Assembly (NCBI RefSeq): GCF_028369105.1
Contig: NZ_JAQNDO010000001.1
Span: forward strand, 2,035,711-2,099,710
Source: Polyangium mundeleinium
GTDB lineage: Bacteria > Myxococcota_A > Polyangia > Polyangiales > Polyangiaceae
Direction: 5' to 3'
Length of the DNA: 64,000 bases
The translations under genes were made by a program, and so were the position numbers. Shown here one piece after another: positions 5,998 to 61,544 of the stretch. Each line of letters opens with the position of its first letter. Within the stretch, counting starts at the first letter, position 1. The notes below the pieces were generated by a model. It had not been told where the DNA came from and ran no database searches. It saw only the letters and a program-made list of their open reading frames with translations.

Positions 5998-11949
<5,952 letters not shown>

Positions 11950-12344
11950 CGAACCTCGACCTCCACTGCCCGAGCCCCATCGTCCGCGCCACGCCCGACG
12001 CGGTGCTCGCCACGCTCCGAAGGATCCAAGACGCCAGCGTGAAAGCTGCACCGTGCACGCGCCGGGGAGCTCACCGATGGGACCAGGAAGCAAGGAAAGG
12101 GAGCCACTGTGACGCATGCTACGGCACACTTGCGCACAGGTACAAGCAGATCCACACGATCGCGGCGCGGGGGATACGCTGTGCAATTTGTTACGATCCT
12201 GGAATGGGCCCCGGTGCGCGCCGGGGCAGGAGGGCGCGGGCCCAGGCTTTGCGTGTATCCGCGCGGGGGCCCGAGAGGCCGTGTTCCGAGACAACCTCGC
12301 GGGCTCGCGGCGGATAACGTTGCGGCGCGCGGTCGGTCCACGAT

Positions 12345-14282
12345 ATGTGGATGAGAAACATCATGAACACGAGATGGACAGGGCTCTTCACGTCGATCCT
12401 CACGGGTGTGCTCGGCGCCGGCTCGATGGGCTGCGAGCTCGTGGCAAACGTGGATCGAAGCCAGATCGACCAGAATCCACCCGGCTCGGAGGTCGTCTGC
12501 GGGGACGGGACCCTCGCCACGAGCGAAGCCTGCGACGATGGCAACACGGCGGCCGGTGACGGCTGTTCGGGCACGTGCGTGGTCGAGGACGGGTTCGCGT
12601 GCACCGGGACGCCGAGCGCGTGCGCCGACGTGGACGAGTGCGCGGCGGGTACGGACGACTGCGATGAAAACGCGACCTGCACGAACGCGGAGGGCTCGTT
12701 CACCTGCGCGTGCAAGGCGGGGTTCACGGGCGACGGCGCGACGTGCACGAACGTGGACGAGTGCACGGATGGCACGGCCAACTGCGGCGCAAACGCGACG
12801 TGCGCGGATACGCCCGGCTCGTTCACGTGCACCTGCGACACCGGGTACACCGGCGACGGCGTGACGTGTACGAACGCCGACGAGTGTGCCGATGGCACGA
12901 ACAACTGTGACGCGAACGCGACGTGCACGGATACGGTCGGCTCGTTCGTCTGCGCGTGCAACGCGGGATTCTCGGGCGACGGCGTGACGTGCACGAACGA
13001 TGACGAGTGCATGCTCGGCATCGACAACTGCGACGCAAACGCGACGTGCATGGATACGCCCGGCTCGTTCGCCTGCGTCTGCAACGTGGGCTACATGGGC
13101 GACGGGCTTTCGTGCACGAACGCCGACGAGTGCATGCTCGGGATGGATAACTGCGACGCGAACGCGACGTGCACGGACACGGTCGGCTCGTTCGTCTGCG
13201 CGTGCAACGCGGGGTTCTCGGGCGACGGCGTGACGTGCACGAACGATGACGAGTGCATGCTCGGCATCGACAACTGCGGCGCGAACGCGACGTGCATGGA
13301 CACGCCCGGCTCGTTCGCCTGCGCCTGCAACACGGGATATGCGGGCGACGGCGTGACGTGCACGAACGTCGACGAGTGCATGCTCGGGACGGACAACTGC
13401 AGCGCGGACGCGACGTGCACGGACACGGTCGGCTCGTTCGTCTGCGCGTGCAACGCGGGGTTCTCGGGCGACGGCGTGACGTGCACGAACGACGACGAGT
13501 GCGCGCTCGGCATCGACGACTGCAGCGCGAACGCGACGTGCACGGATACGCCCGGCTCGTTTACCTGCGCCTGCAACGCGGGGTATGAAGGCGACGGCGT
13601 GACCTGCACGCTGCTGCCGGCGAGCTGCAAGGCGATCAAAGCCGCGACGCCCGCCGCGACCGACGGCGACTATGTCATCGATCCGGACGGCACCGGCCCC
13701 ACGCCTTCGTTTACCGTGCGTTGCGACATGACCACGGCGGGCGGCGGCTTCACGCTCGTCTTCAACGACGGCCCCTCGTTCGACCCGAGCCTCGTCGGCG
13801 CGGGCGCGGAGACCGGGTACACGACGAACTACGTGAACAGCGCGTACGCGACGGTGCCGATCACGGCCGACGTGCTGCTCGACGCCTCCGACACGGCGAT
13901 CAGCGCGAACGATCAGGAAGTGCGGACCCTCATCGCGGGGCTCCCGGCGGCGACGCTCGGTCAAACGATGCGTGAGCTCTTCGCCGCGGGCGGGCCGTTT
14001 TATTTCGACGCGGAGGACAACGCCAACGTGACGAACACGTTCGCCGGCGGCGTCACCTGCGGGACGCTCGCGAAGTGGGACGACTACCGGAGCATTCTCT
14101 GCGGCACGTCGGTGCTCGTGGCGCGTGATCCGTCGGGCCCGTCCTGCCCCGGAACGACGTTCGCGTTTGGCATCGATACGAGTTACAGCACCGCGCTCGA
14201 CAACTGCGCCGGCTGGCCGCAAGCGCCGAACGAGAGCGGGACGAACTACTTCCCGGACAACGTCCGCGTCTGGGTGCGCTGA
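12345..14282 (+). CDS. secreted protein: Myxococcus Cys-rich repeat (TIGR02232-like) + 8 calcium-binding EGF-like domains + C-terminal fibrinogen-related domain
   Basis: Signal/lipobox ...GVLGAGSMGC; CGDGTLATSEACDDGNTAAGDGCSGTC; 8 x (D.DEC..G.DNC..NA.C.DT.GSF.C.C..GF.GDG.TC); FTVRCDMTTAGGGFTLVF matches the fibrinogen C-terminal signature (vyCDM...GGGWTV). Confidence 0.85.
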   Translation: MWMRNIMNTRWTGLFTSILTGVLGAGSMGCELVANVDRSQIDQNPPGSEVVCGDGTLATSEACDDGNTAAGDGCSGTCVVEDGFACTGTPSACADVDECAAGTDDCDENATCTNAEGSFTCACKAGFTGDGATCTNVDECTDGTANCGANATCADTPGSFTCTCDTGYTGDGVTCTNADECADGTNNCDANATCTDTVGSFVCACNAGFSGDGVTCTNDDECMLGIDNCDANATCMDTPGSFACVCNVGYMGDGLSCTNADECMLGMDNCDANATCTDTVGSFVCACNAGFSGDGVTCTNDDECMLGIDNCGANATCMDTPGSFACACNTGYAGDGVTCTNVDECMLGTDNCSADATCTDTVGSFVCACNAGFSGDGVTCTNDDECALGIDDCSANATCTDTPGSFTCACNAGYEGDGVTCTLLPASCKAIKAATPAATDGDYVIDPDGTGPTPSFTVRCDMTTAGGGFTLVFNDGPSFDPSLVGAGAETGYTTNYVNSAYATVPITADVLLDASDTAISANDQEVRTLIAGLPAATLGQTMRELFAAGGPFYFDAEDNANVTNTFAGGVTCGTLAKWDDYRSILCGTSVLVARDPSGPSCPGTTFAFGIDTSYSTALDNCAGWPQAPNESGTNYFPDNVRVWVR

Positions 14283-27317: not shown

Positions 27318-27373
27318 CGGCGGACCCTACCACGGGGCGCTCGACGCGGGCACGTTCGTGTATCGTGCTCCCC

Positions 27374-27865
27374 ATGGACGAGACGCGCGGTGACGAGGAT
27401 GTACGGGCTGCACAAGCGCAGGTGCTTTCGGCGCTCGCGGGGCGGCTCTCGAAGGGGGACGCGCTGCTCCCCGCGGATTTCGTGGCCAAGCTCGCCGAGG
27501 AGCTTGCGCTGCGCATCGACGACGAGGCGATCTCCGCGGCCTGGGCCGAACAAGGGAGAGAGGAGCCGGTGACGTGGCGAGGCAGCGCGGCGCGGTCGAG
27601 CCGGCGCGGGCGGGGGAGGGACGTGCGCGACATCGAGCTGTTCGCACGCGCGGTGCGTGACCTCGAAGCGCTCGGGCCGGCCGAACGGGAGGAGATTTCG
27701 CTGGAGATCGATGCGCTCGCCTTTGATCCGGTGCCGCGCGGGGTGATGGCGCTTCACGGTCGGAAAGACGGACACCTGCAAAACCGCATGGGCGGCCGGC
27801 GATTGCTTTACAAGGTGCAGGGAATGCTGGTGACCGTCGTGGCGATCACCAGCGAGGCGGGCTGA
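27374..27865 (+). CDS. RelE/ParE-like toxin-fold protein, possibly an antitoxin-toxin fusion
   Basis: The C-terminus ...GRRLLYKVQGMLVTVVAITSEAG resembles the RelE/ParE beta-core; the N-terminal 70 aa are helical and acidic. Start taken at MDETRGD (the listed ORF starts 108 nt earlier). Confidence 0.4.
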   Translation: MDETRGDEDVRAAQAQVLSALAGRLSKGDALLPADFVAKLAEELALRIDDEAISAAWAEQGREEPVTWRGSAARSSRRGRGRDVRDIELFARAVRDLEALGPAEREEISLEIDALAFDPVPRGVMALHGRKDGHLQNRMGGRRLLYKVQGMLVTVVAITSEAG

Positions 27866-29341: not shown

Positions 29342-31312
29342 ATGGTGATGTTCGCGCCCACCGAGGCCTTGCGCCCCAACTTGCAGCTCGACGTCGCGTC
29401 CGGGGACACGCTCGACGTGCGCAAGTTCCAGGTCACGGAGCGCATGTCGGATCTCTTCGAGGTCCGCCTCGTGGCGCTCTCGCCGAACCCGGAGATCGAC
29501 TTTGACGCGGTGCTCGGCCGGGAAGCGACGTTCACGCTCTCCCGCGACCAGCTCCTCGCCACCGCCTACCGCACGTGGGGCGGGATCTGCCATCACATCC
29601 AGCAGATCGAGTCGGAGGAGGCGGGGCTCTCCACGTACGAGCTCGTGATCGTGCCGAAGCTCTGGTTCCTCACGCAGCGGCGCAACCACCGCATGTTCCA
29701 GCAGCTCTCGGACCTCGACGTCGTGCTCCAGCTCCTCCGCGAGTGGGGCATCGAGCCCGTGCAGAAGGTCGACGCGGCCACGTACAAGAAACGCAAATAT
29801 CGCGTGCAGTACGGCGAGAGTGATTACGCGTTCCTCTGCCGGCTGCTCGAAGACGCGGGCATCACGTTTTACTTCGACCAGCAAGGCGAGACCACCGTGC
29901 TCGTCCTTCACGACGCGCCGCAGAACAATCCACCCCGCGAGCCCTCCGTCCGGTTCGTCGACAAACCGATGGTGGACAAGGATCTCGAGTTCGTCACCGA
30001 GGTGCGCGTCGGACAGCGCACGCGGCCCGGCAAGTACACGATCTTCGACCACGACTACCGGCGGCCGGCGAACTACAAGCTGATGGGCACGCACGCCGAG
30101 GGCGAGGCCTTCGAGCAGCAGATGGAGCGCTTCCATTACGTGCCCGGCGCGTCCCTCTTCCGCAGCGACGGGCGCGAGCCCACGCCGAGCGCCGACGACA
30201 AGGGCGCGGCGCGGCACGACGAGGGCGAGGCCAAGCGAATCGCGAAGATCCGCCTGGAGGCGAAGCGCGCCGAGGCCCGCAAGGCCACGTTCCGCACGAA
30301 CCTCGTCGAGCTCCGGCCCGGGACCGTGATGCGCGTCGTCGATCATCCGCGGCGCGAGCTCGCGAGCCGGCTGCTCGTGGTGCATTCGACGTACGAGGGC
30401 ACGTCGTATGGCGAGTGGGTCCACCGGCTCGAAACGCGCAGCGCCGAGATCCCCTACCGCCCGCCGCTCGTCACGCCGAAGCCGAAGGTGAGCGGCGTGG
30501 AGAGCGCGACGGTCGTCGGCCCCGCGGGCGAAGAGATCCATACCGACGAGTTCGGCCGCGTGCGGGTCCATTTCCACTGGGATCGCGAGAGCCAGATGAA
30601 CCAGGACAGCTCGTGCTGGATTCACGTGAGCCAATCCTGGGGCGGCGCGGGATACGGCGGCGTGCAGCTCCCGCGCGTTGGCCAGGAGGTGATCGTCGAT
30701 TTCCTCGGCGGCGATCCGGATCGGCCCATCATCGTGGGGCGCGTCTTCACGAACCTGCAAAAGGTGCCGTACCCGCTGCCGGCGAACAAGACGCAGAGCG
30801 GGCTCCGCTCGGCCTCGTCGCCGGCGACGGGCGGCTACAACGAGCTGATGTTCGAGGACGCCGCGGGCCGCGAGCTCATGCGGCTCCAGGCCGAGAAAGA
30901 CTTCACGGGCCTCGTGAAGCACGACCTCCGGATGAACATCCAGAACGACCGCACGCACAACGTCGGCAACAACGACACGGAGACCGTGGTCGGCGAGCAG
31001 TCGGTGAAGGTCGCGAAGAAACGCACCGTGCGGGTCAAGCTCGATCAGCAGCACCAGGTCGGCGAGAACATCCTCGTGCAGTCGGTCAACGGCGTATCGA
31101 CGCACCTGTCGAAGCAGGCCATCCGGCTCTTCAGCGAGATGATCATCCTCTCCACCTCGCCGGACTCGTTCATCGTGATCTCGCAGAGCGGGATCACGAT
31201 CCAATCGCCGATCGTGCAGATCAACCCGGGCATGCTCCGGGTCCCCAACCCGCCGCAGCCCGCGGCGATCGAAGACGCGGCGACCGTCACGGGATACATC
31301 GGAGCACCATGA
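29342..31312 (+). CDS. vgrG: type VI secretion system spike protein VgrG (TssI)
   Basis: gp27-like N-terminus and gp5 OB region; VIVDFLGGDPDRPIIVGRVFTN is the classic VgrG motif. Stop overlaps the next ATG (ATGA). Confidence 0.9.
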   Translation: MVMFAPTEALRPNLQLDVASGDTLDVRKFQVTERMSDLFEVRLVALSPNPEIDFDAVLGREATFTLSRDQLLATAYRTWGGICHHIQQIESEEAGLSTYELVIVPKLWFLTQRRNHRMFQQLSDLDVVLQLLREWGIEPVQKVDAATYKKRKYRVQYGESDYAFLCRLLEDAGITFYFDQQGETTVLVLHDAPQNNPPREPSVRFVDKPMVDKDLEFVTEVRVGQRTRPGKYTIFDHDYRRPANYKLMGTHAEGEAFEQQMERFHYVPGASLFRSDGREPTPSADDKGAARHDEGEAKRIAKIRLEAKRAEARKATFRTNLVELRPGTVMRVVDHPRRELASRLLVVHSTYEGTSYGEWVHRLETRSAEIPYRPPLVTPKPKVSGVESATVVGPAGEEIHTDEFGRVRVHFHWDRESQMNQDSSCWIHVSQSWGGAGYGGVQLPRVGQEVIVDFLGGDPDRPIIVGRVFTNLQKVPYPLPANKTQSGLRSASSPATGGYNELMFEDAAGRELMRLQAEKDFTGLVKHDLRMNIQNDRTHNVGNNDTETVVGEQSVKVAKKRTVRVKLDQQHQVGENILVQSVNGVSTHLSKQAIRLFSEMIILSTSPDSFIVISQSGITIQSPIVQINPGMLRVPNPPQPAAIEDAATVTGYIGAP

Positions 31313-32265
31313 GAGTTCGCAAGCTACGGGTCGACGGTTTCCGGGGTTTGCCCGATCAGGAGTTTTCCTTGATCAACCCGCGCACGGACGGCGCCCACGA
31401 GATCGTGGTCGTCACGGGCGCGCGCGCGAGCGGCAAGACGAGCTTCCTCGAAGCGATCCTCGCGGCGAAGGAGCAAGTCGGACCTTATGGCCCGGCCGCG
31501 CCGTCGTCGAGCTTCCTGCGGCCCGGCGTGACCACGGCGAAGGTGCGCATCGAATGGGAGCTCTCGAACGGGGAGCGGGATCGGTATGGCACCGGCGCGC
31601 GCGCCTTCGTGAGCGAGTCGATCTTCGGCGACCTCGTGCTCGAGCCGCCGGAGCCGGATCCGGCGCTCGCGGCGCTGCTCGCGGAGTACATCCCGGATCC
31701 GGCCTTCGGGAAGGTCGAGTATTTCCACGCCTCGCGACGGCTGCCATTCGCGTCGGCGATCGATCTCTCGCGGTCGGCCGGCGACAGCCTCGATCGGATG
31801 GTGCGGCTCGGCCGCGACGACATGAAGTACAGCGGGCTCGTGCGCTTCATCGTGGAGGCGGGGCTCGGGCTCGACGTGGACGCCGAGGGCAAACCGAAGC
31901 CCCCGGGGCGCATCAAGAAGGCCTTCGAGGCGCTCTGCCCGACCAAGCAGCTCGGGGGGCTCTATCGCGCGGGCGATGCGATGCTGCCGGTCTTCCTCGA
32001 CGGCCAGCGGAGGGCCTACAGCCTGGCGCAGCTCTCGGACAGCGAGCTCGACGCGTTGCTCTTCGCGACGACGTTCGTGCGGGCGGGCGTCGGGCAATCG
32101 ATCGTGCTCATCGACACGCCGGAGAAGCACCTCGGCGACGTGGAGGCGCGCGATTTCGTGAAGGCGCTCGCGACGCTCGGCGCAAACAACCAGCTCATCG
32201 TGGCGACGCAATCGGCGGCGCTCGTGTCGAGCGTGCCGGCGGATCAAGTGATCCGGCTCGGGTGA
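31309..32265 (+). CDS. SMC/RecF-like ABC-type AAA ATPase, translationally coupled to vgrG
   Basis: MRVRKLRVDGFRGL...VVVTGARASGKTSFLEAI (Walker A); SIVLIDTPEKHL (Walker B/D-loop). Sits in the frame of the long listed ORF 30415..32265. Confidence 0.75.
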   Translation: MRVRKLRVDGFRGLPDQEFSLINPRTDGAHEIVVVTGARASGKTSFLEAILAAKEQVGPYGPAAPSSSFLRPGVTTAKVRIEWELSNGERDRYGTGARAFVSESIFGDLVLEPPEPDPALAALLAEYIPDPAFGKVEYFHASRRLPFASAIDLSRSAGDSLDRMVRLGRDDMKYSGLVRFIVEAGLGLDVDAEGKPKPPGRIKKAFEALCPTKQLGGLYRAGDAMLPVFLDGQRRAYSLAQLSDSELDALLFATTFVRAGVGQSIVLIDTPEKHLGDVEARDFVKALATLGANNQLIVATQSAALVSSVPADQVIRLG

Positions 32266-32269
32266 GGCC

Positions 32270-32698
32270 ATGGCGATCTACGAGGTCGACGAGTTTTCGT
32301 TCGAGGTGCCCGACGGGTACGTCGATCGCAGCATGAACCTGTTCTTCCCGCGGGAGGCCATGACGCGGCTCCGGACGCAAAACCTCGTGATCACGCGGGA
32401 GCCGCGCACGGAGGAGACGGTCGTGCAGCAGGCGGCGAGGATCCTGAAGGTGTTCTCGACCAAGGTCCCCAGCCTCAAGATCATCGGGCAGCGCGATCGG
32501 CCCCTCGGCGCGCTCCCGGGCCGGGAGGCGCGGGCGCACGCGACGCAGCAGGGACACCCGGTCTACCAGCGGTATTATTTCGTCGGTCACTATGGCACCT
32601 TCATCTCGGTGATCGCGACCTCGGCGCGGGCGCAGAGCGCGCAGTGCGACGCCGTCGTCGAGCGGCTGCTCACGAGCTTGCGATTGAAGAAGCGGTAG
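32270..32698 (+). CDS. DUF1795 (Eag-family) T6SS effector chaperone candidate
   Basis: 142 aa; N-terminus MAIYEVDEFSFEVPDGYVDRSMNLFF resembles the DUF1795/DcrB-like signature as I recall it (uncertain); positioned between vgrG and a prePAAR gene. Confidence 0.6.
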   Translation: MAIYEVDEFSFEVPDGYVDRSMNLFFPREAMTRLRTQNLVITREPRTEETVVQQAARILKVFSTKVPSLKIIGQRDRPLGALPGREARAHATQQGHPVYQRYYFVGHYGTFISVIATSARAQSAQCDAVVERLLTSLRLKKR

Positions 32699-32716
32699 GG
32701 TGAGGAGGAGCTTTCT

Positions 32717-33148
32717 TTGAGCCTTTACATCACGCACGAGGCGGGCTTCGAGTTGCCCGCGAACTGGGTCGACGGGACCGTCAACCTCCTCGAATATGCG
32801 CGCCCCGAGGGCACGATCCGGGTGGGGATGTCGCGTAGCGATCGAGGCGGGAAGGACCTCGCCGCGTGCGTGGAGGAGCGGCTCGTGGAGCAGCGGCGCA
32901 AGCTCCCGTTCTTCGAGCTCCTCGGGCGATCGGAGCGCCTCTGCGCGGGCCTTCCGGCGATCGACGTGAAGGTGACCTACGAGGACGCCAAGCAGAAGAT
33001 ATACCAGCGGACGCTGGGGTTCGTGATCGGGGGGCGATTCGTCTCGCTGGGCGTCACGGCGACGCTTTCGCAGCAGGCCGAGGCGGACGCCATTCTCGAG
33101 CGCGCGGCGTCCACGCTCTCGTTGCGGGCGCGGCCGAGCGGGGCCTGA
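32717..33148 (+). CDS. second DUF1795 (Eag-family) chaperone paralog
   Basis: 143 aa; MSLYITHEAGFELPANWVDGTVNLL. Confidence 0.6.
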   Translation: MSLYITHEAGFELPANWVDGTVNLLEYARPEGTIRVGMSRSDRGGKDLAACVEERLVEQRRKLPFFELLGRSERLCAGLPAIDVKVTYEDAKQKIYQRTLGFVIGGRFVSLGVTATLSQQAEADAILERAASTLSLRARPSGA

Positions 33149-33164
33149 AGGGAGGGGCAGGGGC

Positions 33165-34211
<1,047 letters not shown>

Positions 34212-34213
34212 CC

Positions 34214-36472
34214 TTAGCGCCCGCCTCGACCCACGGGCTGCGATTGCACCACGCGGCCCAGCGCCAGCACGCGCAGCGTGATCGACTCGTTGTCTGCCGG
34301 ATCCTGCTGCGGGTGCGGCTCGGCAATGGCTCGCACACGTAGCCGCGGGAAGAGCGGCAGCTTCTCCGACAGCACCTCCGGCATGTACGTCGGCAGCGGC
34401 GAACCGCTGCCCAGAGAGAGCAATCCGCCGATGTGCTCCCCGCCGAAGAGCTTGCGCTTCAGGTAATGACGCTCCTCGATCAGGATTCGCTGCGCCGTCG
34501 TTTCAAGGTAATCCGACGCGAGCGACCGATTGGCCTGGGCAAACGCCTGCCGCACGCGCGACAAGGCCCCCTCGAGGAGCGGCACCGCCGCGCTCCGCGG
34601 CCCCCGGCAGAGCTCCTCCGCCGCGTCGAGCGCCTCCTTCAGCCGCTTGTCCGCCGCGGCGAGCTGCGAGGCCACGGCGATCGTCGTTTTCAGCGTCTCC
34701 AGCGGGTCGCAGGTCATCGCGAGCTCGCCGTTCACGATCACCAGCGGCTGCTCGAAGATCCCATCCTCGTCGATGGCCTCCTCCATCACGCGGGCCATGC
34801 CGATCGCGTCGAGCGGCGGCACGCGGCCGAGCGCGCGCCGGATGTCGCGGCGATCCGTCACGGCCTGCGTCGGCTCCTCCGGCTCCTCGCCCGTGAGCCA
34901 TTCCGTCGGGCGCTGCGGATCCCGCAGGTAGGACGCCCACGCCGATTGCTGTCGCACCCGCTGCGGCGCGTGTTCGTCGAACCAGATCAAATCGACGTAT
35001 TCGGCGGCCGGCGCGCGGCGTCGCACGGGCACGCTCGTCGAGATCACGGGCGCCGCCGGCTCGGGGCGCGGTGCGGCGACGGCCGCCGCATCCGAGGCCG
35101 CCGCGAGCCCGCCGAGCGTCGCCTGGGCATCATGCACGGGCGGCGGCGCGACAGGCGCGGGCGGCGGGACGGCGACGGGCGCGGGCGGCGCGACGGGCGC
35201 GGGCGGAGGGGCATACAGCGGCGGCGCAGCCGGGGGCGCGGGGGTTGGCGCGCTGATCGACGAGGCCGGCGCACTCAGGAAGGGGAGGCGCCCGCCGGGC
35301 GCGGGGGGGCGGGCCGCCGCCTCGGGGGTGGCGCTCGGGGTCGACTGGAAAGGCAAGACGCGCCCGGACGCGGCCTGCACGAGGCTCGGATCGGCGATCG
35401 TCTGGGCCGGTGGCGGCCTTGGCTTCGTGGACTTGATCTCCGCCTCCTCGGTCGGCGGGATCGATTTCTGCGGTCGTGATGGCGCTTCGGGCGCGGCCGC
35501 GGCCTTCGAGGGCGGCGCGCTGTCGAGCCATATCTTCACCTCGCCCGGCTCGTCGCGCAGGCGCATGGGGATCTGCGCGCGGAACGTCAGCGTGCAGAGC
35601 AGCCGATCGGTGTCGATCCACAACGTATCGGCGCGCATCGGCTGCGCGCCTTGCCCGCGGCCCTCGACCAGGAACACCGGCGCGAGGCCCGGCAGGCTCG
35701 TGACGAGCCGCGGCACGCTGGGGTGCAGGTTTTCGAGGAGGATCCGCGCGTTCGCGGGGAGGAAATCGGTCTGCTGATCCGGCGGCGCTGCATTGAAGTA
35801 GCGGAAATCGAAGCCGTCGGGGATGTGCGATTCGTACCAGCGATCGGGCAGGCTGCCGCGGGCGAGCGCGCCGAGCCGCTCGCGCCGCGCGGGCCAGGAA
35901 GGCGCGAGAGGGCCAAACCCGACGGGCTCGACGAAATCGGCCGGGGCGCGGACCGTGACGCCGGGCCACGTGATGTTCGGCATGCGCACGCGCCCCATCG
36001 CGTCGGCCCATCCCGCGCGCACGCCGACCGGATTCGCCGTGTCCGGCCCGCCGCCGGCCCGCTCGTAGACGAGCGGCATTCGCGTGAAACGTTGCCCCTC
36101 GGCGAGAGAGCCGTCGGGCTGGAACCAGCGATCCTGGGTGACCTCGATCGATTTGTCGACCTCGCCCACGAGGAGGCGCGCGACGACCGAACGCGCGGGG
36201 ACCTGCTGCGGCGCGTGCGCGGAGCCCACGAGGAGCACGTCCGCGCGCGGCTTGAAGGGGACGACGTCGCTCGGGACGCGCAGGCTGCGGTTCGTGTCAT
36301 CGTCCCAGTGCTCGTCGGCGGCGGCGATGTCTTCCGGGTCCTCCGCGAGCGGGGACGTGCCCGGCGCGAGGGAAAACGTCGCCTTGCAGACGACCGTGAA
36401 CACCCACCCCTGCGCTCGATTCGGCCAGATCAAGGACGCACAGGGGAACGGGGCATTCGAGACGATTTGCAT
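34214..36472 (-). CDS. DUF2169-family protein (T6SS effector-associated adaptor family) with a long Pro/Ala-rich C-terminal extension
   Basis: The N-terminus MQIVSNAPFPCASLIWPNRAQGWVFTVVCKATFSL resembles the DUF2169 signature as I recall it (M.i.N.tPf......d.dG....vvvvKaTf.l; uncertain); convergent with the PAAR gene (2-nt gap between stops). Confidence 0.6.
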   Translation of the reverse strand: MQIVSNAPFPCASLIWPNRAQGWVFTVVCKATFSLAPGTSPLAEDPEDIAAADEHWDDDTNRSLRVPSDVVPFKPRADVLLVGSAHAPQQVPARSVVARLLVGEVDKSIEVTQDRWFQPDGSLAEGQRFTRMPLVYERAGGGPDTANPVGVRAGWADAMGRVRMPNITWPGVTVRAPADFVEPVGFGPLAPSWPARRERLGALARGSLPDRWYESHIPDGFDFRYFNAAPPDQQTDFLPANARILLENLHPSVPRLVTSLPGLAPVFLVEGRGQGAQPMRADTLWIDTDRLLCTLTFRAQIPMRLRDEPGEVKIWLDSAPPSKAAAAPEAPSRPQKSIPPTEEAEIKSTKPRPPPAQTIADPSLVQAASGRVLPFQSTPSATPEAAARPPAPGGRLPFLSAPASSISAPTPAPPAAPPLYAPPPAPVAPPAPVAVPPPAPVAPPPVHDAQATLGGLAAASDAAAVAAPRPEPAAPVISTSVPVRRRAPAAEYVDLIWFDEHAPQRVRQQSAWASYLRDPQRPTEWLTGEEPEEPTQAVTDRRDIRRALGRVPPLDAIGMARVMEEAIDEDGIFEQPLVIVNGELAMTCDPLETLKTTIAVASQLAAADKRLKEALDAAEELCRGPRSAAVPLLEGALSRVRQAFAQANRSLASDYLETTAQRILIEERHYLKRKLFGGEHIGGLLSLGSGSPLPTYMPEVLSEKLPLFPRLRVRAIAEPHPQQDPADNESITLRVLALGRVVQSQPVGRGGR

Positions 36473-36637
36473 TGGATCCCGCCTGCTCGAAAAGAAAAGA
36501 GTAGGCGAACGAGAGGGGTCTTGTCAACGCGCCGCCGTGGACGTCGGCGCGTTCCAGGGGGAGCCCCCTGTCCCCCGACCGATCGGGCACGACGCCGCCG
36601 TGGTAACTTCTTCCCGTATGCTGTAGGCTGGGGAACC

Positions 36638-37543
36638 ATGAACGTTCGGAATCATTTTTATCGAAGTGCTGCGCTCCTCGGTCTTTGCCCCATTCCTGGT
36701 ACGCTCGGCGCACACGTCGCGCATGGGGATGTGTTCGCGTACGATCCCCCCGGGCTCGCGGTGACGTACATCAAGGGCCGCTTCACGGACCATGATCTGG
36801 GCGTGGGGACGATCCGCTGGCGGGAGACGCCGGCGTCTGACAGTTACCTCGCCGAGACCAACGTCACGGGCGACGTCATCACGTCCTCGTATGGCACCGA
36901 CGTGCTCTCCGTGGTCACCGTGAAGGAGGACAATGGCACGATTCGCTCGACCGAGGTCGAGGAGTCGTGGCAGGGCTGCTCCCTCACGCAGCGCGCGCGG
37001 CCGCTCGGCGGGTCGAATTCGCAATGGCTGACGCACGAGGGGACGTGGGACGGCCAGGTGTATCATTACGCGCAGGAGCGGTTCACGCGCACCCGCGGCC
37101 AGAAGCAGTTGTTCTACGGCCAGCGGCAGCCCGATGGATCCTGGAGCGAGTCGTATGTCTACAACGGGGTCGGCACGGACATCGACGAGACGTGGGGCGG
37201 TAACGTCGAGGGGACGACGTGGGTCAACTGGCTTATCAACTGGGGCGACGCGTACATCTTCGGCAGCGACACGATGTACCTCGACGGCTCCCGCCGCCGG
37301 ACGATCGAGGAGGTCTTCGAGACCTGCGGCGATTCGTACGACTTCACGATCGGCTATGACGGCTCCGGCACGGGGACGAGCACGCGCTGCGAGGTGGTCT
37401 ACCCCTATCCGGACGACCCCGAATGGTATGACATCGTCTACTCGAACTGCACGATGAAGATCTCGAACGGCGCGTGCTCGCGGACGTGTACGGACGGCGG
37501 CACCTATTCGTGCGAGTACGCCATGTCCTCGGTCGTGTACTGA
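36638..37543 (+). CDS. hypothetical Trp/Tyr/Gly-rich secreted protein
   Basis: MNVRNHFYRSAALLGLCPIPG...; its 5' codons are AT-richer than the genomic background; divergent from the DUF2169-like gene. Confidence 0.55.
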   Translation: MNVRNHFYRSAALLGLCPIPGTLGAHVAHGDVFAYDPPGLAVTYIKGRFTDHDLGVGTIRWRETPASDSYLAETNVTGDVITSSYGTDVLSVVTVKEDNGTIRSTEVEESWQGCSLTQRARPLGGSNSQWLTHEGTWDGQVYHYAQERFTRTRGQKQLFYGQRQPDGSWSESYVYNGVGTDIDETWGGNVEGTTWVNWLINWGDAYIFGSDTMYLDGSRRRTIEEVFETCGDSYDFTIGYDGSGTGTSTRCEVVYPYPDDPEWYDIVYSNCTMKISNGACSRTCTDGGTYSCEYAMSSVVY

Positions 37544-37577: not shown

Positions 37578-38690
37578 CTACTGGCACACGCCGAACTCGG
37601 GATGGCCGGGGATGCCGTACGTCGAGCACGTCGCGTCCCCAGTGCAGGGGTGCGCGGCGTCGCAATACGCGAGGCACCGGCGATCGCCGGTGGACCAAGC
37701 GACGCCGCACCGGGCGTTCACGCCGCAATCGGCGTCCTTGGCGCAGACGTCGCCGACGGCCACCGCGCCGGCATGACCACAAGCGAAGCCGCCGGTGGTG
37801 CTGGAGAAATCCACGATCCCGTCCTTGTCGAGGACCGTGCGGTCGCGGCAGGTCGCGCCCGCCTCACAACCATTGCCGAACGGCGCGCAGGTCGGGATGC
37901 AGAGGCCGCCGAGGGGCGAAGCGTACGGGTAGGCGAGGCAGAGCTCGTTCGCGCTGCAATCGGTCGACTTCGTGCAGAACGAGCGGCAGGCGAAGCTGCT
38001 GGCCGGCTTCGCGTCGTCGGTGCAGAGCAAGCCCGGGGCGCAGTTGTCCTCGCCGAAGGCGGTGCGCGTACATGTCGCGCCCTCCGCGACGGCGCCGCCG
38101 GCGGCCTCGCAGACCGAGAAGTAGCTCGTCTTTTGGCCCGCAGGGTCGACCATCGTGCATTCCTTCCCGGCGCCGCAGGTTTGCCCCATGAGGTCACAGC
38201 AGGCGCTCGTGGCGCCCGCGGGGAGCGCTTGCTCGGGGAGCGCGATGCTGCACGAGCCGGCGCTTTCGTCCGTCATGTAGCTGCAGTCCAGCATCAGACT
38301 GCCGTTTTTTTCGAGCTTGGCGGTGCATTCATAAGGAAACTTCGTCGTGGTGACGTGATGGAGGACGCCCGAGAGGGTCGCGGTGGGGCCCTCGACGGTG
38401 CCGGTCAGCACGCCCATGTTGGTGGACACGGTGAGCGCACAGCTATTCTGCGCGACGCAGGCCCCCTTGAGCATCACTCCTATGCCGGCGCTGCATGAAA
38501 GGACCTCCCCCACGACGAACGTGCCGGAGAAATCGGCGCAGTCCGGCCCGCCGCCGCTGCCGCCGGCGCCACCAGTGCCGCCACTGCCACCGGCGCCTCC
38601 ACTGCCGCCGGAGTTCGATTCCGAGCATCCAAAGGTCGCGAGGGATGTGAAGAGAAGACACGCGAGAAGAACGCGAGTACGAGCGTGCAT
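37578..38690 (-). CDS. Cys-rich secreted lipoprotein (about 40 Cys)
   Basis: Start ATG 38690 at MHARTRVLLACLLFTSLATFGC (lipobox), (GGSGGAGG)n linker; the upstream 293 aa of the listed ORF are Arg-rich junk. Confidence 0.7.
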   Translation of the reverse strand: MHARTRVLLACLLFTSLATFGCSESNSGGSGGAGGSGGTGGAGGSGGGPDCADFSGTFVVGEVLSCSAGIGVMLKGACVAQNSCALTVSTNMGVLTGTVEGPTATLSGVLHHVTTTKFPYECTAKLEKNGSLMLDCSYMTDESAGSCSIALPEQALPAGATSACCDLMGQTCGAGKECTMVDPAGQKTSYFSVCEAAGGAVAEGATCTRTAFGEDNCAPGLLCTDDAKPASSFACRSFCTKSTDCSANELCLAYPYASPLGGLCIPTCAPFGNGCEAGATCRDRTVLDKDGIVDFSSTTGGFACGHAGAVAVGDVCAKDADCGVNARCGVAWSTGDRRCLAYCDAAHPCTGDATCSTYGIPGHPEFGVCQ

Positions 38691-38941
38691 GATCGATGAG
38701 CTCCGAGGTGTACCTGCGGTCCGCACAATGTGGACCGCGGATGCGGCGCGCCCCTTGGCAACCGCCGTACCATCTCGGAATGTCGCGGGTTTTGCCGGGC
38801 ACACCCTCGGGAATGTGGGGATTTCGTCGCGCCAGGGTACGCGCACTCTGCGCCGCCGGCAGGACATGCGCGTCGGGGCCTTCGGCGCGCGCGCTCGTGG
38901 ATCCTGTTGGAATCGTGCCCCGCGCGCCGGAATTGTGCCTC

Positions 38942-42454: not shown

Positions 42455-43342
42455 ATGCCGCTAGGATCCGAACCCACGAACCCGGCGCAGGGCACCACTG
42501 CATCGAGCGAAGCTGCGGAAGCGGTGGCGGCATGCCCTCTCGATCGGCTCCAACCCGCCTTGGCGTGGAACGACCAGCTAGGGGGCCTGAACCTGACTTG
42601 GGAGGTGCTCGACTGTGCGCTGCAGAGCGACGTGACCATCGAGGTCTACTTCGCGAGCGGCCCTGCCTACGCGGACCGCCTCGAGACCGCGGTCTTCACG
42701 CATGTGGTCCCCGCCGGCACCGCGGTTGGTCAGGGCGGGCCAGTCCACGTCCCCGGAGGAGATCTCAGCAATGATCCCGCTGGCACGACGCACCTCATCG
42801 CCACGGGCAAGCCGACCACCTTGGTCGGCCCGATCGCAGACGTCCGCATCGTCTTCGGCGCAAACGCGGACGCGGGAGCGGTCTCCGCGGGCATGACGGA
42901 TATTGTCAAGGACGGCCTCCGCGCCGCGGGCGCCGCGGTGGGCACAATCACCAGCACCGCGCGCACGCCCGCCGATCAGGCGCGAGCGATGTTCAACAAC
43001 ATCCAGAATACTGGCACGGCCGAGCAGCAACAGTTGTACGGCCCCGCCGGTGACGCGGTGATCCAGAGATACATCGACGCAACGCAGAACCTGACCCCGG
43101 CCCAGATCCAGGCACAGAGCACGCAGATCCAGCAGGCGATGACCGACGAGATCAATGCTCAGGGACCGGAGAACGTCTCCAGGCACTGCGGCGATCCGGC
43201 GGTCCGCAGCGTGGTCGACATTTCATACAACTCCTTCAACGCGACGAATCGTCCCCTCTTCCGCACTTCAGTCTCCGCCCGTGTGACGCGGCTCCTCGAT
43301 GAGCCGAACAACAACTGCTTCCATCTCGAGCTGACCAACTGA
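42455..43342 (+). CDS. hypothetical protein; weak LAS/M15-peptidase-like motifs (STARTPADQ ... H)
   Basis: Start taken at MPLGSEP (ATG 42455), immediately after the upstream stop; the listed ORF begins earlier at 42365. Confidence 0.45.
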   Translation: MPLGSEPTNPAQGTTASSEAAEAVAACPLDRLQPALAWNDQLGGLNLTWEVLDCALQSDVTIEVYFASGPAYADRLETAVFTHVVPAGTAVGQGGPVHVPGGDLSNDPAGTTHLIATGKPTTLVGPIADVRIVFGANADAGAVSAGMTDIVKDGLRAAGAAVGTITSTARTPADQARAMFNNIQNTGTAEQQQLYGPAGDAVIQRYIDATQNLTPAQIQAQSTQIQQAMTDEINAQGPENVSRHCGDPAVRSVVDISYNSFNATNRPLFRTSVSARVTRLLDEPNNNCFHLELTN

Positions 43343-43837
43343 CGTGACCTTGCCCTACGCCTCGCTGACAACCCGCAGGAATTCACAAGGGTGCGGGCTC
43401 ATCGCCGTGACTCCGGATCCCTGCGGATCGATTCTATGTTGGAGTTGTCGTACACGTCCCACATCGCGCTTCTCCTCGGTCGCATGGCACACCTTTGCGT
43501 TCAAGTGCAGAATCACCCGCTCGTCGACCGTAAGCTGAACGAGCGCGCGCAGGGCGATTGCTTTCGCAAAGCACTCTGGGTCGTCTTGCAATCGCAAGGC
43601 GATGCGGAGCTCTCAAGTGGGGCAACGGAAATGCGCAGTGACTCTCTTGGCTCGTTGCACGATACTCCATATCCGATCGCGTTGTCGGGGCATTGTGTGA
43701 TTCATGTGGATCCGAACCGTGTCCAGATACGGCCCGGAGCGCATTCAAAGAATTGTTTGCTTCAAATGCTGCCAAAAGGGCTGCATTCCTTGCGGCGGTT
43801 GGGCGGGTAGACCGCGATCCCCCAAGCCCACTAATTC

Positions 43838-43872
43838 CAGGCGAGTGACAAACAATCAATCCCCCGGCAAAG
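43838..43872 (-). terminator. intrinsic-terminator-like hairpin on the minus strand (ccccccggctttgccggggg followed by AUUGAUUGUUUGU)
   Basis: 7-8 bp GC stem, 5-nt loop, U-rich tail when read on the minus strand. Confidence 0.4.
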
Positions 43873-44226
43873 CCGGGGGGTTCGATGCTGCGGCCCATGG
43901 TGGATGGCCCCGCCCAGGACATGGACGGACGTGACCCCCGACACATAACAGTCCTCCACCAAACGCCTGGCGGCCGGAGGTCCGTCACTTTTCGCGTTAC
44001 CTTGCCGAAGCCGGCGCCCTCGTTCGATCACGCGGCTGCATCCGTGTCCGTGCCCGTCATAGCGCCGCCCACACCGAAAAAGCAGCGGCCCACGCTGCGG
44101 CGTCCCCTGGTCGACAGCGACAAACAAGGCATCCCCACGAGCGGTTTGTCCGCGGACCAGAAGGGTTCGTCCGCGGACTCTTCCTTCTAGGATCCGAGCC
44201 TCCGAGTGTGCTCAAGTTCGATCCTC

Positions 44227-51889: not shown

Positions 51890-54800
51890 TCAAGGGGCAA
51901 TGCCCCGGGTCGGGTCAAGGGCGGAAGCCCTTGTGGGGTGAAGGGGCAACGCCCCTTCGCTCTCGGTCGAGAGCGGCAGCTCGACGCAGAAGGTCGAGCC
52001 CCGGCCGATCTCGCTCGACACACGAATTCGGCCGCCGTGCGCCTCGACGATGGTGCGCGTGATGTAGAGGCCGAGCCCGAGCCCCCCGTAATGCTGCGAC
52101 GAGACGCCGCGTCGAAATCGTTCGAAGAGCTGCGCCTGCACCTCGGCCGGGATCCCGATCCCGCGGTCCGTCACCGAGAGCCGTGCGACCCGATCTTCTC
52201 CGGTGATGGTGATGTCGATCGGCTGGCGTTCCCCGAACTTGATCGCGTTGGTGAGGAGGTTGGTCACGACCTGCTCCAGGCGGTGCGGGTCCCACCGGCC
52301 GATGACCGGCTGCTCCGCGCGCACGGCAATCGCGCTGCCTGACCGCGCGATCTGATCGCCGAGGTGGGCGACGACCTCGTCGACGAGCGCGCGCAGCTCG
52401 ACGGGCGCTGGGTACAGCTCGAGCCTCCCCGCCTGGATCCGGGAAACGTCGAGGAGCATATCGATGAGGTCGGCGAGGCGCTTGACCTGGCGGTCAGAGA
52501 GGGCGACCGCGGATCGCACGCGCTCGACGTCCATGCCCCGCGCGAGCCTTTGCCCCAGCGATTGAATGGCGAGCTGCAGGCTGGTGAGCGGGGTGCGGAG
52601 CTCGTGCGAGGCGATCGAAAGGAACTCGTCCCGTAGCTGCACGGCCTCCTCCGCTGCCGTGCGCGCGCGCCGCTCGTCCAGGAGGAGCTGATCGCGCTGC
52701 TGCTCGGCGCGCACGCGCGCGGTGATGTCGCGGAAGCTCCAGACCCGCCCGACCACGCGCCCGCCGAGGCGCTGGGGCTGCGAATAACGCTCGAAGATGC
52801 GCCCGTCCGCGAACGGGATGACATCGAAGCTGGACTTCTCGGGCGAGGCATAGAGAGCGCGGATCCTTTGCAGGAACGTCTCGGGATCGAGGAGCTGGTC
52901 GCAGACGAACGTACGGAACGTGTCGTCCGACCCGGTGGAGAGGATCTCGTCCGGGATGCGCCACATCGCCGCGAACCTGTGATTCTGACGCACGACGCGC
53001 TGCTCGTCGTCGACGACGAGGATGCCGTCCGCCGTCGATTCGAGCGTGGCCTCGAGGAGCGAGTAGGAATGGCGGAGCACCTCCTCGGCGCGCCGTCGCT
53101 CCGCGTTCTCCTGCTGCAAATCCGCATAGAGGCGCGCATTCTCGATGGAGTTGGCCGCCTGGGCCGAGAGATGCCGGATCACCTCGACGCGATCGGGGGT
53201 GAAAGCAGAGCGGGTGAGGTCGTTGTCGAGATAGATCACGCCGGCGAGGCGGCCCTTGTAGACGAGGGGCGCGGCGAGCGAGGAGCACGGCGCACCGCCG
53301 GCGAAGCAGGGATCGCGCCCGAACGGCCCGTCGATCGCGAGGTCGTCGAGCAGGACGGTCTCGCGCGTCCGCGCCACGTACGTGACGACGCTGGCCGGCA
53401 GGTCCTTGCGGTCCTCGAGGGGCGCCGCGCCAAGCACGTGGACGGCCGCCTCGCCGATGCGGTGCTCGGCCTCGACGACGAGCCGTCCGTCACGCAGCAG
53501 CAGCAGGACGCCGCGCCGCGCGCCGGCATTCTCGACCAGGATGCGCATGAGCGCGTCGAGCAGGCGCTCGAGGACGATCTCGCCCGAGATGGCCTGGGAG
53601 GCCTTGAGCACCGAGCCGAGGTCGAGCGCGGTGCTGGCGGGCGCAGCGGCCTCCGGGCCCATCGCGCCGCGAAGGATCTCGCTGGGGACGAGGTCGGGGT
53701 ACGCGCGTTCGAGGCGCCGCATCGCCTCGGTCGCGCCCCAGCGGCCGTACGCCCGGTGCGCCTTGGTCAGGTAGGCGCAGGCGACGGTGGTCTTGCCGAG
53801 AGCGCGGAAGGACAGGCCGGCGAGCTCGTTGGCGAGCGCCTCGTCGTGGAGGTAGCCGCCGCGCTGCGCGAGGGCGATCGCCTCGTCGTAGCGCTCCCAC
53901 GCGGCGTGCGCGTCGCCGCGGACGCGCGCGAGCTCGGCGTCGAGCAGGGCGCTGCGGTGCGCCAGGTTCTCCGGGCAGAGGTCCGCCCAGCGCGAGAGTT
54001 TTTTAGCGAAGATCTCCGCGCGGGCGAGGAAGAGCACGCGCTCGTCGGGGGAGACCACGTCCGCCGCCTGCGTGAGCGCGACGCCGGCGTAGACATGGAA
54101 CGCAGCGGCGCCCTGCCAGGACACCACGGTCGGGATCTCGATGTTCAGCGAGAGCGCGGTGCGCGCCGCTTCCTCGAACGCGCCCTGGAAGACGCCGAGG
54201 AGCACGACGTAGAACTGCGCGAGGGAAGTCGAGACCAGGTTGTCCATCCGGCGGGACTCCTCGATCACCTCGTCGATGTCGACCCATGCGCCCTTGAGCT
54301 TGGCCGGGCGCGCGGTCTCGACCGAGAGCTGGTGCGCCAACTGTCCGATCGCGTCGACTATCCAGGTGATGGTGTCGAACTCGTCGAGCTTGCATATCGG
54401 CTGGTAACTCTGCGCCTCGGCGAGGAGGTCGGAGAGCGGCAGGCCGCGCAGGAGGCTGTTCGTGATGGCGTTGACTGTGTTGTAGAACGCCCAGATGTAC
54501 TGGCCCGTCTCGAGCCCGGCGTGCATCCCCGCGAGCAGCGACTTCTGGCAGGCGGGGTAGCCCTCTCTCCAGTGCTGTACGTGGCCGCCCCACAAGTGCC
54601 GGAGCATCGCCTCGGATTTCTTGTCCGGGTGGCGCTCCGAAAGGTCGATGGCAGCGCGGCCAAAGCGGTAGCCGAGCTCGACGTCGCCGCGGGCGCAGAG
54701 GGACGTCCCGAAGGTGATGCAGCCGTAGATCGCGTGCTTCGACAGGCCGTGGCGCAGCGTGTTCTCGAGGATCTTCGCGACCATGATGGTGAGGTTGTTG

Positions 54801-59451: not shown

Positions 59452-60195
59452 TCAGGGGCCGGAGCTGGGGAGGGCGAGCGCGTCTTCGAGAGCCCGGCAC
59501 GCATGCAGGTTCCAGACGAACCACATCATCGAGCCGCCCGTTTGGACCACGTCCCACACGGCGACGGATTTGCCGAGCACCTCGTTGTGCTCGCCGCCGA
59601 GGCAGGTCTTTTCCTTGGGTTTGGGCACATCATCGAGCTTCGTGCGGTCCGCGCCCCAGGCTTCGAAGGTCGTGGCGTCGGCGCAGCGGTGTTTCTCCCG
59701 GCACAGGGCGATGGCCCGCTCCGTGGCCTGGTAGGTCCATGCCTCGGTGCTGTAGAACGGCACGCACTCGATGATGCGTTCGAGCTTCTGCGCGATTTCG
59801 TCGGGCGAGTGTTTCCCGGCGAGGACCTGCGCGACACGCGTGCGGACCTCGCGATCAAACTGCGCAGGGGTCTTCGCCTCGGCTCTGCGGGACCACGTCG
59901 TGTCCGTGTCGCCGTCATAGTGGAAGACGACGAAGCCGCCGGGCTCGGCGATTTTCCGGGCGATGTAATGCCAGAGGTCTCGCTTTTTACGCTCGTCTTT
60001 GGCCTTCGTGCTCCGCCATTGATTCGCGATCAGGACGGGCCGGATGTCGTCATCGACGGGGACGAGCTCGACGCGGGGCGTGTACCCATTCTCCTCGAAC
60101 CGGTTCAGCAACTTCTGAACAATGGCCCGGAGGCCACGCCATGTAGGCTCGCTCGAATCCTCCGAGAGCAGCGCGATGGAGAAGCGCGGCCTCAC
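59452..60195 (-). CDS. Toprim-like (DUF4276/DUF4435-like) partner protein, GTG start overlapping the ATPase stop (GTGA)
   Basis: VRPRFSIALLSEDSSE (strand-1 Glu) ... FVVFHYDGDTD (DxD); 247 aa; the upstream 138 aa of the listed ORF are Pro/Arg junk antisense to nothing credible. Confidence 0.6.
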   Translation of the reverse strand: MRPRFSIALLSEDSSEPTWRGLRAIVQKLLNRFEENGYTPRVELVPVDDDIRPVLIANQWRSTKAKDERKKRDLWHYIARKIAEPGGFVVFHYDGDTDTTWSRRAEAKTPAQFDREVRTRVAQVLAGKHSPDEIAQKLERIIECVPFYSTEAWTYQATERAIALCREKHRCADATTFEAWGADRTKLDDVPKPKEKTCLGGEHNEVLGKSVAVWDVVQTGGSMMWFVWNLHACRALEDALALPSSGP

Positions 60196-61424: not shown

Positions 61425-61544
61425 GCGGGTCTTCTTACCGTCGCCCACCCCGGATGCATAGGGCCAAAGCCGGCCGCCCCGTCGCCCACGCAAGCGCACC
61501 CCTCTGCCCCATGAGCCCACCTCCTTGCTCGCAGAAGGGAGCAC

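Follow-up and report, generated by a model that had tools for sequence, protein, structure and literature searches.

A 64-kb stretch of the Polyangium mundeleinium genome (contig NZ_JAQNDO010000001.1, positions 2,035,711 to 2,099,710, about 69% G+C; hereafter the window) carries an auxiliary type VI secretion system (T6SS) spike island. Its genes encode a VgrG spike protein, two Eag-type chaperones, a membrane-anchored PAAR tip protein, a DUF2169 protein and a protein that resembles the ATPase PtuA. We propose that these genes form a spike-loading module in which the PtuA-like protein serves the VgrG-PAAR spike as an accessory gated by nucleotide, a reading to which we assign a probability of about one half. 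The arrangement is not peculiar to this genome; it is a conserved module of Polyangiaceae-type myxobacteria, found at 13 loci. The module is of interest because it contains an undescribed, conserved ATP-binding component of the ABC-head type, because Eag and DUF2169 chaperones surround a true PAAR protein, and because that protein, with its transmembrane domain (TMD), lacks both a toxin domain and an immunity gene and ends in a hypervariable tail. The kind of system is itself not new, as T6SS adaptor and tip systems are already known.

Myxobacteria are known for very large numbers of such genes, with as many as 35 genes for PAAR proteins and 70 for adaptors in Chondromyces apiculatus, so orphan vgrG islands are ordinary there. 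The remaining genes of the window were called with a codon-usage score, and each of the 42 calls was scanned against Pfam. No T6SS core family was found among them. The initial annotation had described an orphan or auxiliary vgrG island in a window with no other core genes, and for these 64 kb that description is therefore correct. All of the open reading frames (ORFs) it listed exist at their coordinates. It was to be given up if profile searches found no DUF1795 domain in the two chaperone genes or no PAAR domain in the tip gene; we ran these searches, and it stands because the matches to PF08786 and PF05488 exceed their cutoffs.

Genes of the module

The spike gene, vgrG (tssI), occupies positions 29342–31312 of the forward strand, on which all the module genes lie except that for the DUF2169 protein. 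Its 656-amino acid product carries the GGDPDRPIIVGRVF motif from which it was originally identified and matches TIGR03361 strongly (E 1e-142, 476 bits; cutoff 186). Matches to Phage_GPD (PF05954), Phage_base_V (PF04717) and Gp5_trimer_C (PF22178) complete the set of gp27-like, OB-fold and gp5 beta-helix domains. No C-terminal effector domain was found in its 656 residues.

The next gene (31309–32265, 318 amino acids) encodes the PtuA-like protein. Its ATG and the vgrG stop codon share the sequence ATGA, in keeping with the translational coupling first proposed for this pair, and a match to AAA_21 just over the threshold (30.1 bits; cutoff 27) agrees with an ATPase of the SMC-head type. The matches to SMC_N, RecF and PtuA are weak. 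By fold and profile, the nearest relatives are the defence ATPases PtuA, AriA and GajA. The protein is not a PtuA in the strict sense, however: the NCBIfam equivalog model NF041760 gives 21.6 bits against a cutoff of 500. Unlike PtuA of Septu and of retrons Ec78 and Ec83, or AriA of PARIS, it is a head only, about 200 amino acids shorter, and always lies within vgrG/PAAR operons (13 loci). It also differs from them in having no partner nuclease; we saw neither a PtuB HNH protein nor a member of any other nuclease family, either in the module or in the related loci.

Can such a protein bind and hydrolyse ATP? The hallmarks of the ABC/SMC-head superfamily are present: a Walker A motif (residues 37–44), a signature-like motif, the Walker B aspartate and the head fold. 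We detected 112 homologues and took motif statistics from an alignment of 109 family members. G37, G42 and K43 of Walker A are invariant in all 109, and T44 is threonine in 108; nucleotide binding is therefore under selection. The Walker B motif is non-canonical (LIDTPE, residues 267–272). D269 and the P271-E272 pair that follows are invariant, and the residue directly after the aspartate is threonine in 84 homologues, serine in 12 and glutamate in 3. At the H-loop position (residues 299–301) the protein reads A-T-Q, and a histidine is never present there in the 109 sequences. The combination of catalytic glutamate and H-loop histidine found in PtuA and AriA is thus replaced in this family. 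We infer that nucleotide binding, probably with ATP-dependent head dimerisation, is essential, and that hydrolysis would be slow, activated by a partner or carried out through E272.

All ATPase homologues with an organism name come from Polyangium, Chondromyces, Minicystis or unclassified Polyangiaceae and Myxococcales, and the others are metagenomic. The closest named relatives, from Polyangium species, are 90–95% identical. No paper in the literature we searched has such an ATPase as a T6SS accessory, which agrees with the earlier statement that the arrangement is undescribed. Full-text searches pairing VgrG with AAA_21 or PtuA returned nothing relevant. A 2026 review of T6SS accessory factors covers ClpV, the ABC-like protein TagT and the regulator Sfa2, with no PtuA-type or SMC-head-type protein.

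Two genes for Eag-type (DUF1795) chaperones follow: EagA (32270–32698, 142 amino acids) and EagB (32717–33148, 143 amino acids, with a TTG start). Each product matches PF08786 (DcrB/DUF1795) above its gathering score (E 2.3e-13, 50.8 bits; cutoff 27.2), as expected from the initial annotation. The solved structures whose sequences match best are EagT6 and SciW, at weak E-values of 0.0015–0.7, the value of 0.0015 being that of EagB with EagT6 among sequences in the Protein Data Bank (PDB). The description of a duplicated chaperone holds insofar as there are two genes, but not in the sense of a recent duplication. EagA and EagB are only 26% identical in pairwise comparison, so they are an old, conserved pair. 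EagA is 34–70% identical to the Eags at the first position of related loci and 19–28% identical to those at the second. The two positions thus represent two anciently diverged orthologous lineages, with EagB in the second, and both are kept as a pair in several related loci. Here and in nine related loci, the Eag genes lie directly 5' of the prePAAR/TMD gene. That two Eags are retained for a single TMD region suggests that they act as a heterodimer or divide the labour between them; by analogy with known Eags, their predicted role is to bind and stabilise the TMD of the tip.

The tip protein (33165–34211, 348 amino acids) has the general layout of a prePAAR effector: motif, TMD, PAAR domain. 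The motif AVRIDDAVEH (residues 10–19, positions 33192–33221) fits the prePAAR consensus AARxxDxxxH (Ahmad et al. 2020, PMC7773334). By hydropathy, the Gly/Ala-rich TMD region (residues 16–59, positions 33210–33341) has room for two helices. The PAAR domain (residues 71–133, positions 33375–33563) matches PF05488 (E 2.3e-10, 41 bits; cutoff 27), and the match to the prePAAR_I profile falls below threshold (E 0.014). The motif is kept in six of seven aligned homologues. When seven family members are aligned, A10, R12, D15, H19 and C101 do not vary, in line with a published proposal in which the prePAAR histidine completes the zinc site. The tip is thus the prePAAR/PAAR membrane protein that had been predicted, and profile matches and motif support its assignment, with the two DUF1795 genes, to the published Eag paradigm. 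A word-indexed homologue search with its N-terminus returned three matches.

Is this protein an effector? It matches no toxin or Rhs family in Pfam or NCBIfam, and no Rhs gene adjoins it among the gene calls of the window. Unlike class I prePAAR proteins, then, it has neither Rhs repeats nor a toxin domain. Unlike class II proteins, it has no second TMD region: no Kyte-Doolittle segment of at least 1.4 follows the PAAR domain, residues 146–254 being too little hydrophobic. The class II motif GxxxxGxxLxGxxxD is absent from all seven homologues. Judged by its sequence, the tip has the N-terminal layout of class I without the Rhs cage and toxin, and it does not belong to class II. The earlier statement that the effector lacks a toxin domain is therefore half sustained: no toxin profile matches, but the label 'effector' is unproven for a protein with neither toxin domain nor immunity gene. 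As it has no recognisable enzyme domain, the tip may be membrane-targeting or purely structural.

The PAAR domain is followed by a region of about 110 amino acids (residues 146–254) that is conserved, yet fast-evolving, in the family alignment. Next come a proline tract (residues 255–333, positions 33927–34163; 74 prolines, up to 48 of them in a row, and 4 glycines) and a Gly-rich end of 15 residues. The tract is encoded by imperfect CCN trinucleotides, and the CCG tract was the sole find in a repeat search. The P. fumosum orthologue, 94% identical, also has a polyproline tail; its record is partial and stops inside the tract, whose length may therefore depend on the assembly. In P. jinanense the tail consists of a Gly/Ser/Asn repeat encoded by unrelated DNA, and that of Chondromyces is Pro/Ala/Thr-rich. 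The tail is therefore a hypervariable low-complexity appendage. We considered the P. jinanense tail as a copy of the polyproline tract in a shifted frame or inverted orientation and rejected the idea, as its DNA is a different, GGC/AGC/AAC repeat.

On the reverse strand, the DUF2169 (TvpA-like) gene (34214–36472, 752 amino acids) converges on the PAAR gene across a gap of 2 bp, where the initial annotation had placed a DUF2169-like gene. The DUF2169 domain (residues 24–298, positions 35579–36403) matches PF09937 with an E-value of 1.4e-70. A Pro/Ala-rich linker (about residues 320–480) leads to an unannotated domain of some 270 amino acids (about residues 485–752, positions 34217–35020), which alignment shows to be conserved in every copy of the module. 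This C-terminal domain has no Pfam model and no sequence relative in the PDB; a profile built from 22 sequences found nothing credible there (best E 0.2), and an AlphaFold2 model from a six-sequence alignment reached a pLDDT of 44. A word-indexed search with the domain gave five matches. Its family comprises 1091 clusters at 50% identity. In all the matches listed the domain is C-terminal, in proteins mostly of 650–960 amino acids (shorter ones are probably fragments), and 10 of 10 sampled members carry an N-terminal DUF2169. The cognate PIPY (DUF4150) tip of TvpA systems is missing: the adjacent tip matches PAAR_motif alone, with no DUF4150 match at E-values up to 1, and no DUF4150 was found among the gene calls of the window.

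How does the module compare with systems already described? It shares several features with the Eag and prePAAR systems EagT6-Tse6, EagR1-RhsA and SciW-Rhs1 (Ahmad et al. 2020, PMC7773334): the AARxxDxxxH-type motif, whose histidine is conserved as a putative fourth zinc ligand, a Gly/Ala-rich TMD preceding a true PAAR domain, neighbouring DUF1795 genes and a vgrG immediately upstream. Unlike them, it has two divergent Eags for one TMD region, no immunity gene, and an ATPase and a DUF2169 gene, and its myxobacterial host lies beyond the 15 proteobacterial genera of the original survey (PMC7773334). DUF2169 proteins (TvpA) are presented as chaperones for PIPY (DUF4150) tips by Sachar et al. 2025 (PMC11883445) and Monlezun et al. 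2026 (PMC13373197); the latter arrange Tvp classes I–III around TvpA, with no ATPase and no Eag. A DUF2169 protein linked to vgrG and a tip gene is common to those systems and ours, and multidomain DUF2169 proteins are known. Here, unlike there, the linked tip is a canonical zinc-type PAAR protein with a prePAAR motif rather than a PIPY protein; the DUF2169 gene is convergent or divergent and stands outside the vgrG operon; its C-terminal extension is the unannotated domain rather than pentapeptide repeats; and Eag chaperones are present whereas genes for TvpB, TvpC and TvpD (DUF6484, DUF3540) are not. A COMMD-like identity for the module proteins was rejected, as no COMM profile matched; the genes of PMC13392464 are separate ones, in a VgrG1b-like cluster.

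Conservation and divergence of the module

Conservation was assessed at 13 distinct loci, 11 of them with gene calls. At all 13 the ATPase gene lies within a vgrG/PAAR operon, down to 33% identity, and at 7 of the 11 loci with gene calls there is a 4-nucleotide overlap between its start and the stop of the gene before it. Ten loci, which we call type 1, have, in this order, vgrG, the ATPase gene, one or two Eag genes and a short prePAAR-TMD-PAAR gene (280–396 amino acids). Type 2 loci (L008 and L013) instead have the order vgrG, PAAR-toxin gene, small ORF, ATPase gene, with no detectable Eag. Their PAAR proteins (positions 8584–9432 of L008 and 6435–7346 of L013) have no TMD and carry peptidase-type domains, either a metallopeptidase-like HExxH (HEFGH) region or one that resembles Peptidase_C39_2. 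The two small ORFs encode 161 and 217 amino acids, are mutually non-homologous and look immunity-like; this lack of homology, and the lipoprotein-type signal of the L013 ORF, would be expected of immunity genes. A further locus, L005, has three vgrG copies, the ATPase gene and a PAAR gene, again with no detectable Eag. Because the ATPase also occurs in Eag-less loci with other PAAR cargo, its partner appears to be the VgrG/PAAR spike and no particular toxin. Nine of the 13 loci have a DUF2169 gene whose product ends in the same C-terminal domain. The gene is mostly convergent and abuts the PAAR gene; at L006 it is divergent and upstream of vgrG.

The P. jinanense locus is syntenic with ours, with a malic enzyme gene upstream and a gene for an M10 peptidase with a lectin domain downstream. 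Codon-by-codon comparison of the two divides the module into two sets of genes. VgrG (91% amino acid identity), the ATPase (90%) and the DUF2169 protein (89%) have synonymous divergences (dS) of 0.24, 0.28 and 0.28 and ratios of nonsynonymous to synonymous divergence (dN/dS) of 0.22, 0.19 and 0.21, respectively. For EagA (70%), EagB (68%) and the PAAR protein (46%), dS is 0.50, 0.43 and 1.23 and dN/dS is 0.41, 0.56 and 0.49. All six genes are under purifying selection, and a cassette of much greater divergence, the Eag-Eag-PAAR block, sits between conserved genes. The ATPase evolves together with the apparatus genes, and variation in the Eags goes with that in the TMD-PAAR protein. The low divergence that the ATPase shares with VgrG and DUF2169 puts it on the side of the delivery apparatus. 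That it might be a toxin or an immunity protein is disfavoured because either would co-vary with the cargo, and the pattern points to conserved delivery hardware. Within the tip, conservation is highest in the PAAR domain (70% identity with P. jinanense) and falls to 53% in the TMD and 41% in the post-PAAR region. This last region is still homologous between genera, at 19–48% identity, and is therefore not a swapped polymorphic toxin domain.

Two copies of the module, the second copy of C. crocatus (L002) and that of P. spumosum (L016), have a conserved 106-amino acid ORF (62% identity) 3' of the PAAR gene, at positions 13008–13328 and 10061–10381, respectively. A LysM-muramidase gene lies directly upstream of the DUF2169 gene in both (15858–16973 in L002, 12707–13594 in L016). 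Near other copies we found an Amidase_2 gene (L015), a lysozyme-like gene (L017) and PG_binding_1 genes (L012, L007). These peptidoglycan-binding and hydrolase genes are possible cargo or possible partners in cell-wall remodelling.

Neighbouring genes and other features of the window

Two genes without a family match separate the DUF2169 gene from the M10 peptidase/lectin gene. One, at 36638–37543 on the forward strand, encodes a Trp-rich protein of 301 amino acids with a probable Sec signal, as judged by eye; the other, at about 37578–38700 on the reverse strand, encodes a Cys-rich putative lipoprotein. Both genes are absent from the syntenic P. jinanense locus and look like an insertion. The initial annotation had the Trp-rich gene at the 3' boundary of the island, and it is indeed there, but it is a neighbour and not a component: a tblastn search of the first ten related loci (L001–L010) gave no match, and the syntenic P. 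jinanense locus has no copy. The same observations, with the probable Sec signal, led us to reject the Trp-rich protein as a cargo of the module.

Elsewhere in the window is a second ATPase of the AAA_21/SMC_N type (60192–61448, reverse strand, 418 amino acids; PF13304 E 8.5e-13, PADLOC AriA 4e-15). It is followed in the same orientation by a 247-amino acid ORF without a family match, and local G+C dips to 0.61. This pair (59452–61448) may be a two-gene defence or toxin–antitoxin (TA)-like island unrelated to the vgrG module. A scan for promoters and terminators gave counts near those expected from shuffled sequence.

A protein of 1983 amino acids with 17 MopE-type copper-binding motifs is encoded at 5998–11949 (reverse strand), and the adjoining gene (12345–14282, forward strand) encodes 645 amino acids with eight EGF-like domains; the two together span 5998–14282. 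Large repeat proteins of this sort are typical of myxobacterial secretomes. An 1870-amino acid signalling protein at 51890–57502 (reverse strand) combines a Ser/Thr kinase with AAA_16 (STAND-like), GAF, PAS, HisKA and HATPase domains. A 166-amino acid ORF at 27365–27865 (forward strand), flanked by the esterase and malic enzyme genes, has no Pfam match; by eye, its C-terminus, LLYKVQGMLVTVVAI, resembles toxins of the RelE/ParE type. The lowest G+C of the window (0.60, against about 0.69 overall) is at 43001–44000, within a region of weak coding signal (41.7–45.4 kb), and may mark recently acquired DNA.

Possible functions of the PtuA-like protein and the tip

Under the reading we prefer, VgrG would form the trimeric spike and the 348-residue prePAAR-TMD-PAAR protein would cap it. 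The two Eags, possibly as a heterodimer, would keep the N-terminal hydrophobic helices of the tip soluble in the producing cell, and the DUF2169 protein would stabilise the tip on VgrG, as TvpA does for PIPY-type tips. These steps follow the precedent of each family, as published for Eag and prePAAR proteins (PMC7773334) and for DUF2169/TvpA (PMC11883445, PMC13373197). The present data suggest one further component, the 318-residue PtuA-like protein of the ABC type, as a nucleotide-dependent accessory of the VgrG-PAAR spike. It would bind ATP, dimerise head to head, as ABC and SMC heads do, and work as a slowly acting switch or clamp. As a switch it would permit the tip to be assembled on VgrG or passed on to the baseplate, and it might help to strip off the chaperones.

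Several considerations weigh against this reading. It draws on the identities of the proteins, their conservation and linkage, the motif pattern of the ATPase and the partition of divergence among the genes; the physical contacts and the dimerising switch are all inferred from these. The survey covered the 64-kb window, and the T6SS core cluster of the source genome was not seen. Having lost the catalytic glutamate and the H-loop histidine, the PtuA-like protein could be no ATPase at all. PtuA-type ATPases usually act on or sense nucleic acids in defence, and the proposal leaves such an activity unexplained. Two distant proteins with DUF2169 and the same C-terminal domain stand alone or beside a DUF4123-type vgrG island, so the family is a general myxobacterial T6SS-linked accessory, not exclusive to the module. 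The DUF2169 gene is on the opposite strand and is missing from 4 of the 13 loci, and the published work has DUF2169 proteins partnering PIPY/DUF4150 tips, with their genes rarely beside a true PAAR gene (PMC11883445). The DUF2169 protein may therefore serve a different tip, its pairing with the PAAR protein being presumed by analogy.

Could the tip itself be the toxin? As a small membrane-inserting or depolarising effector, it would damage the target membrane with its Gly-zipper helices and post-PAAR domain, and the rest of the module would be delivery aids. Its combination of prePAAR motif, TMD and Eags is that of known TMD effectors (PMC7773334), although the TMDs of published prePAAR effectors serve translocation rather than killing. 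Evolution in the Eag-Eag-PAAR cassette far outpaces that of the genes around it, as in effector cassettes, yet the post-PAAR region is homologous throughout the family (19–48% identity) instead of being swapped as in polymorphic toxins. A VgrG-linked effector acting on membrane potential is reported for a Serratia Tvp system (PMC13373197); our tip matches no toxin family. The 106-amino acid ORF of the L002/L016 subclade could be an immunity gene, but no immunity-like ORF is seen in the window or in most related loci, and here the convergent DUF2169 gene begins 2 bp past the PAAR stop. We regard a toxic tip as doubtful.

Two other roles can be imagined for the PtuA-like protein. As a release or loading factor for the Eags, it would use ATP binding to pry the TMD from the Eag pair as the complex docks at VgrG or the baseplate. 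The position of its gene, between vgrG and the eag genes in ten loci, would suit this role, and the catalyst of TMD release is explicitly described as unknown and release itself as energetically demanding (PMC12881460). Proteobacterial Eag systems function without such a protein, however, its canonical hydrolysis residues are missing, and 3 of the 13 loci (L005, L008 and L013) have the ATPase with no detectable Eag, the PAAR proteins of L008 and L013 having no TMD either; we think a dedicated release factor unlikely. Alternatively, the protein could be a defence-type (Septu- or PARIS-like) or TA-like hitch-hiker in variable vgrG islands, with no role in secretion. Its closest relatives by fold and profile are indeed the defence ATPases PtuA, AriA and GajA, and the second AAA_21 ATPase of the window (59452–61448) has a partner ORF without a family match. 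Linkage to vgrG/PAAR at 13 of 13 loci across genera, the 4-nucleotide overlap in 7 of 11 and a divergence as low as that of vgrG (dN/dS 0.19) are not what a passenger would show. The protein is moreover a 318-residue head without the PtuA insertion, far below the NCBIfam PtuA cutoff (21.6 bits against 500), and has no nuclease or other effector partner gene. A mere passenger is very improbable.

Current accounts of T6SS spike loading invoke three adaptor families, Eag, DUF4123 and DUF2169/Tvp, all of them ATP-independent. If the reading we prefer is true, a conserved nucleotide-binding protein encoded within vgrG-PAAR operons would introduce a step gated by energy or nucleotide, and it would offer a concrete candidate for dissociating the extremely stable Eag-TMD complexes (PMC12881460). 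More speculatively, the PtuA-like protein could represent a new class of T6SS accessory, an ATP-gated ABC-head clamp recruited from a defence-type ATPase lineage that controls PAAR loading onto VgrG and, in modules with Eags, TMD release as well, with the tip perhaps a non-enzymatic effector such as a membrane-anchored proline-rich tether; we hold this fuller version only tentatively and think it rather unlikely as a whole. DUF2169 has been reported to pair almost exclusively with PIPY tips; the module runs counter to this, and Eag-type and Tvp-type chaperones occur in it side by side. It exposes a large unannotated family of DUF2169 C-terminal domains, with more than 1000 clusters at 50% identity. 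In these myxobacteria, an ABC ATPase fold of the defence type would have been re-used in the context of secretion.

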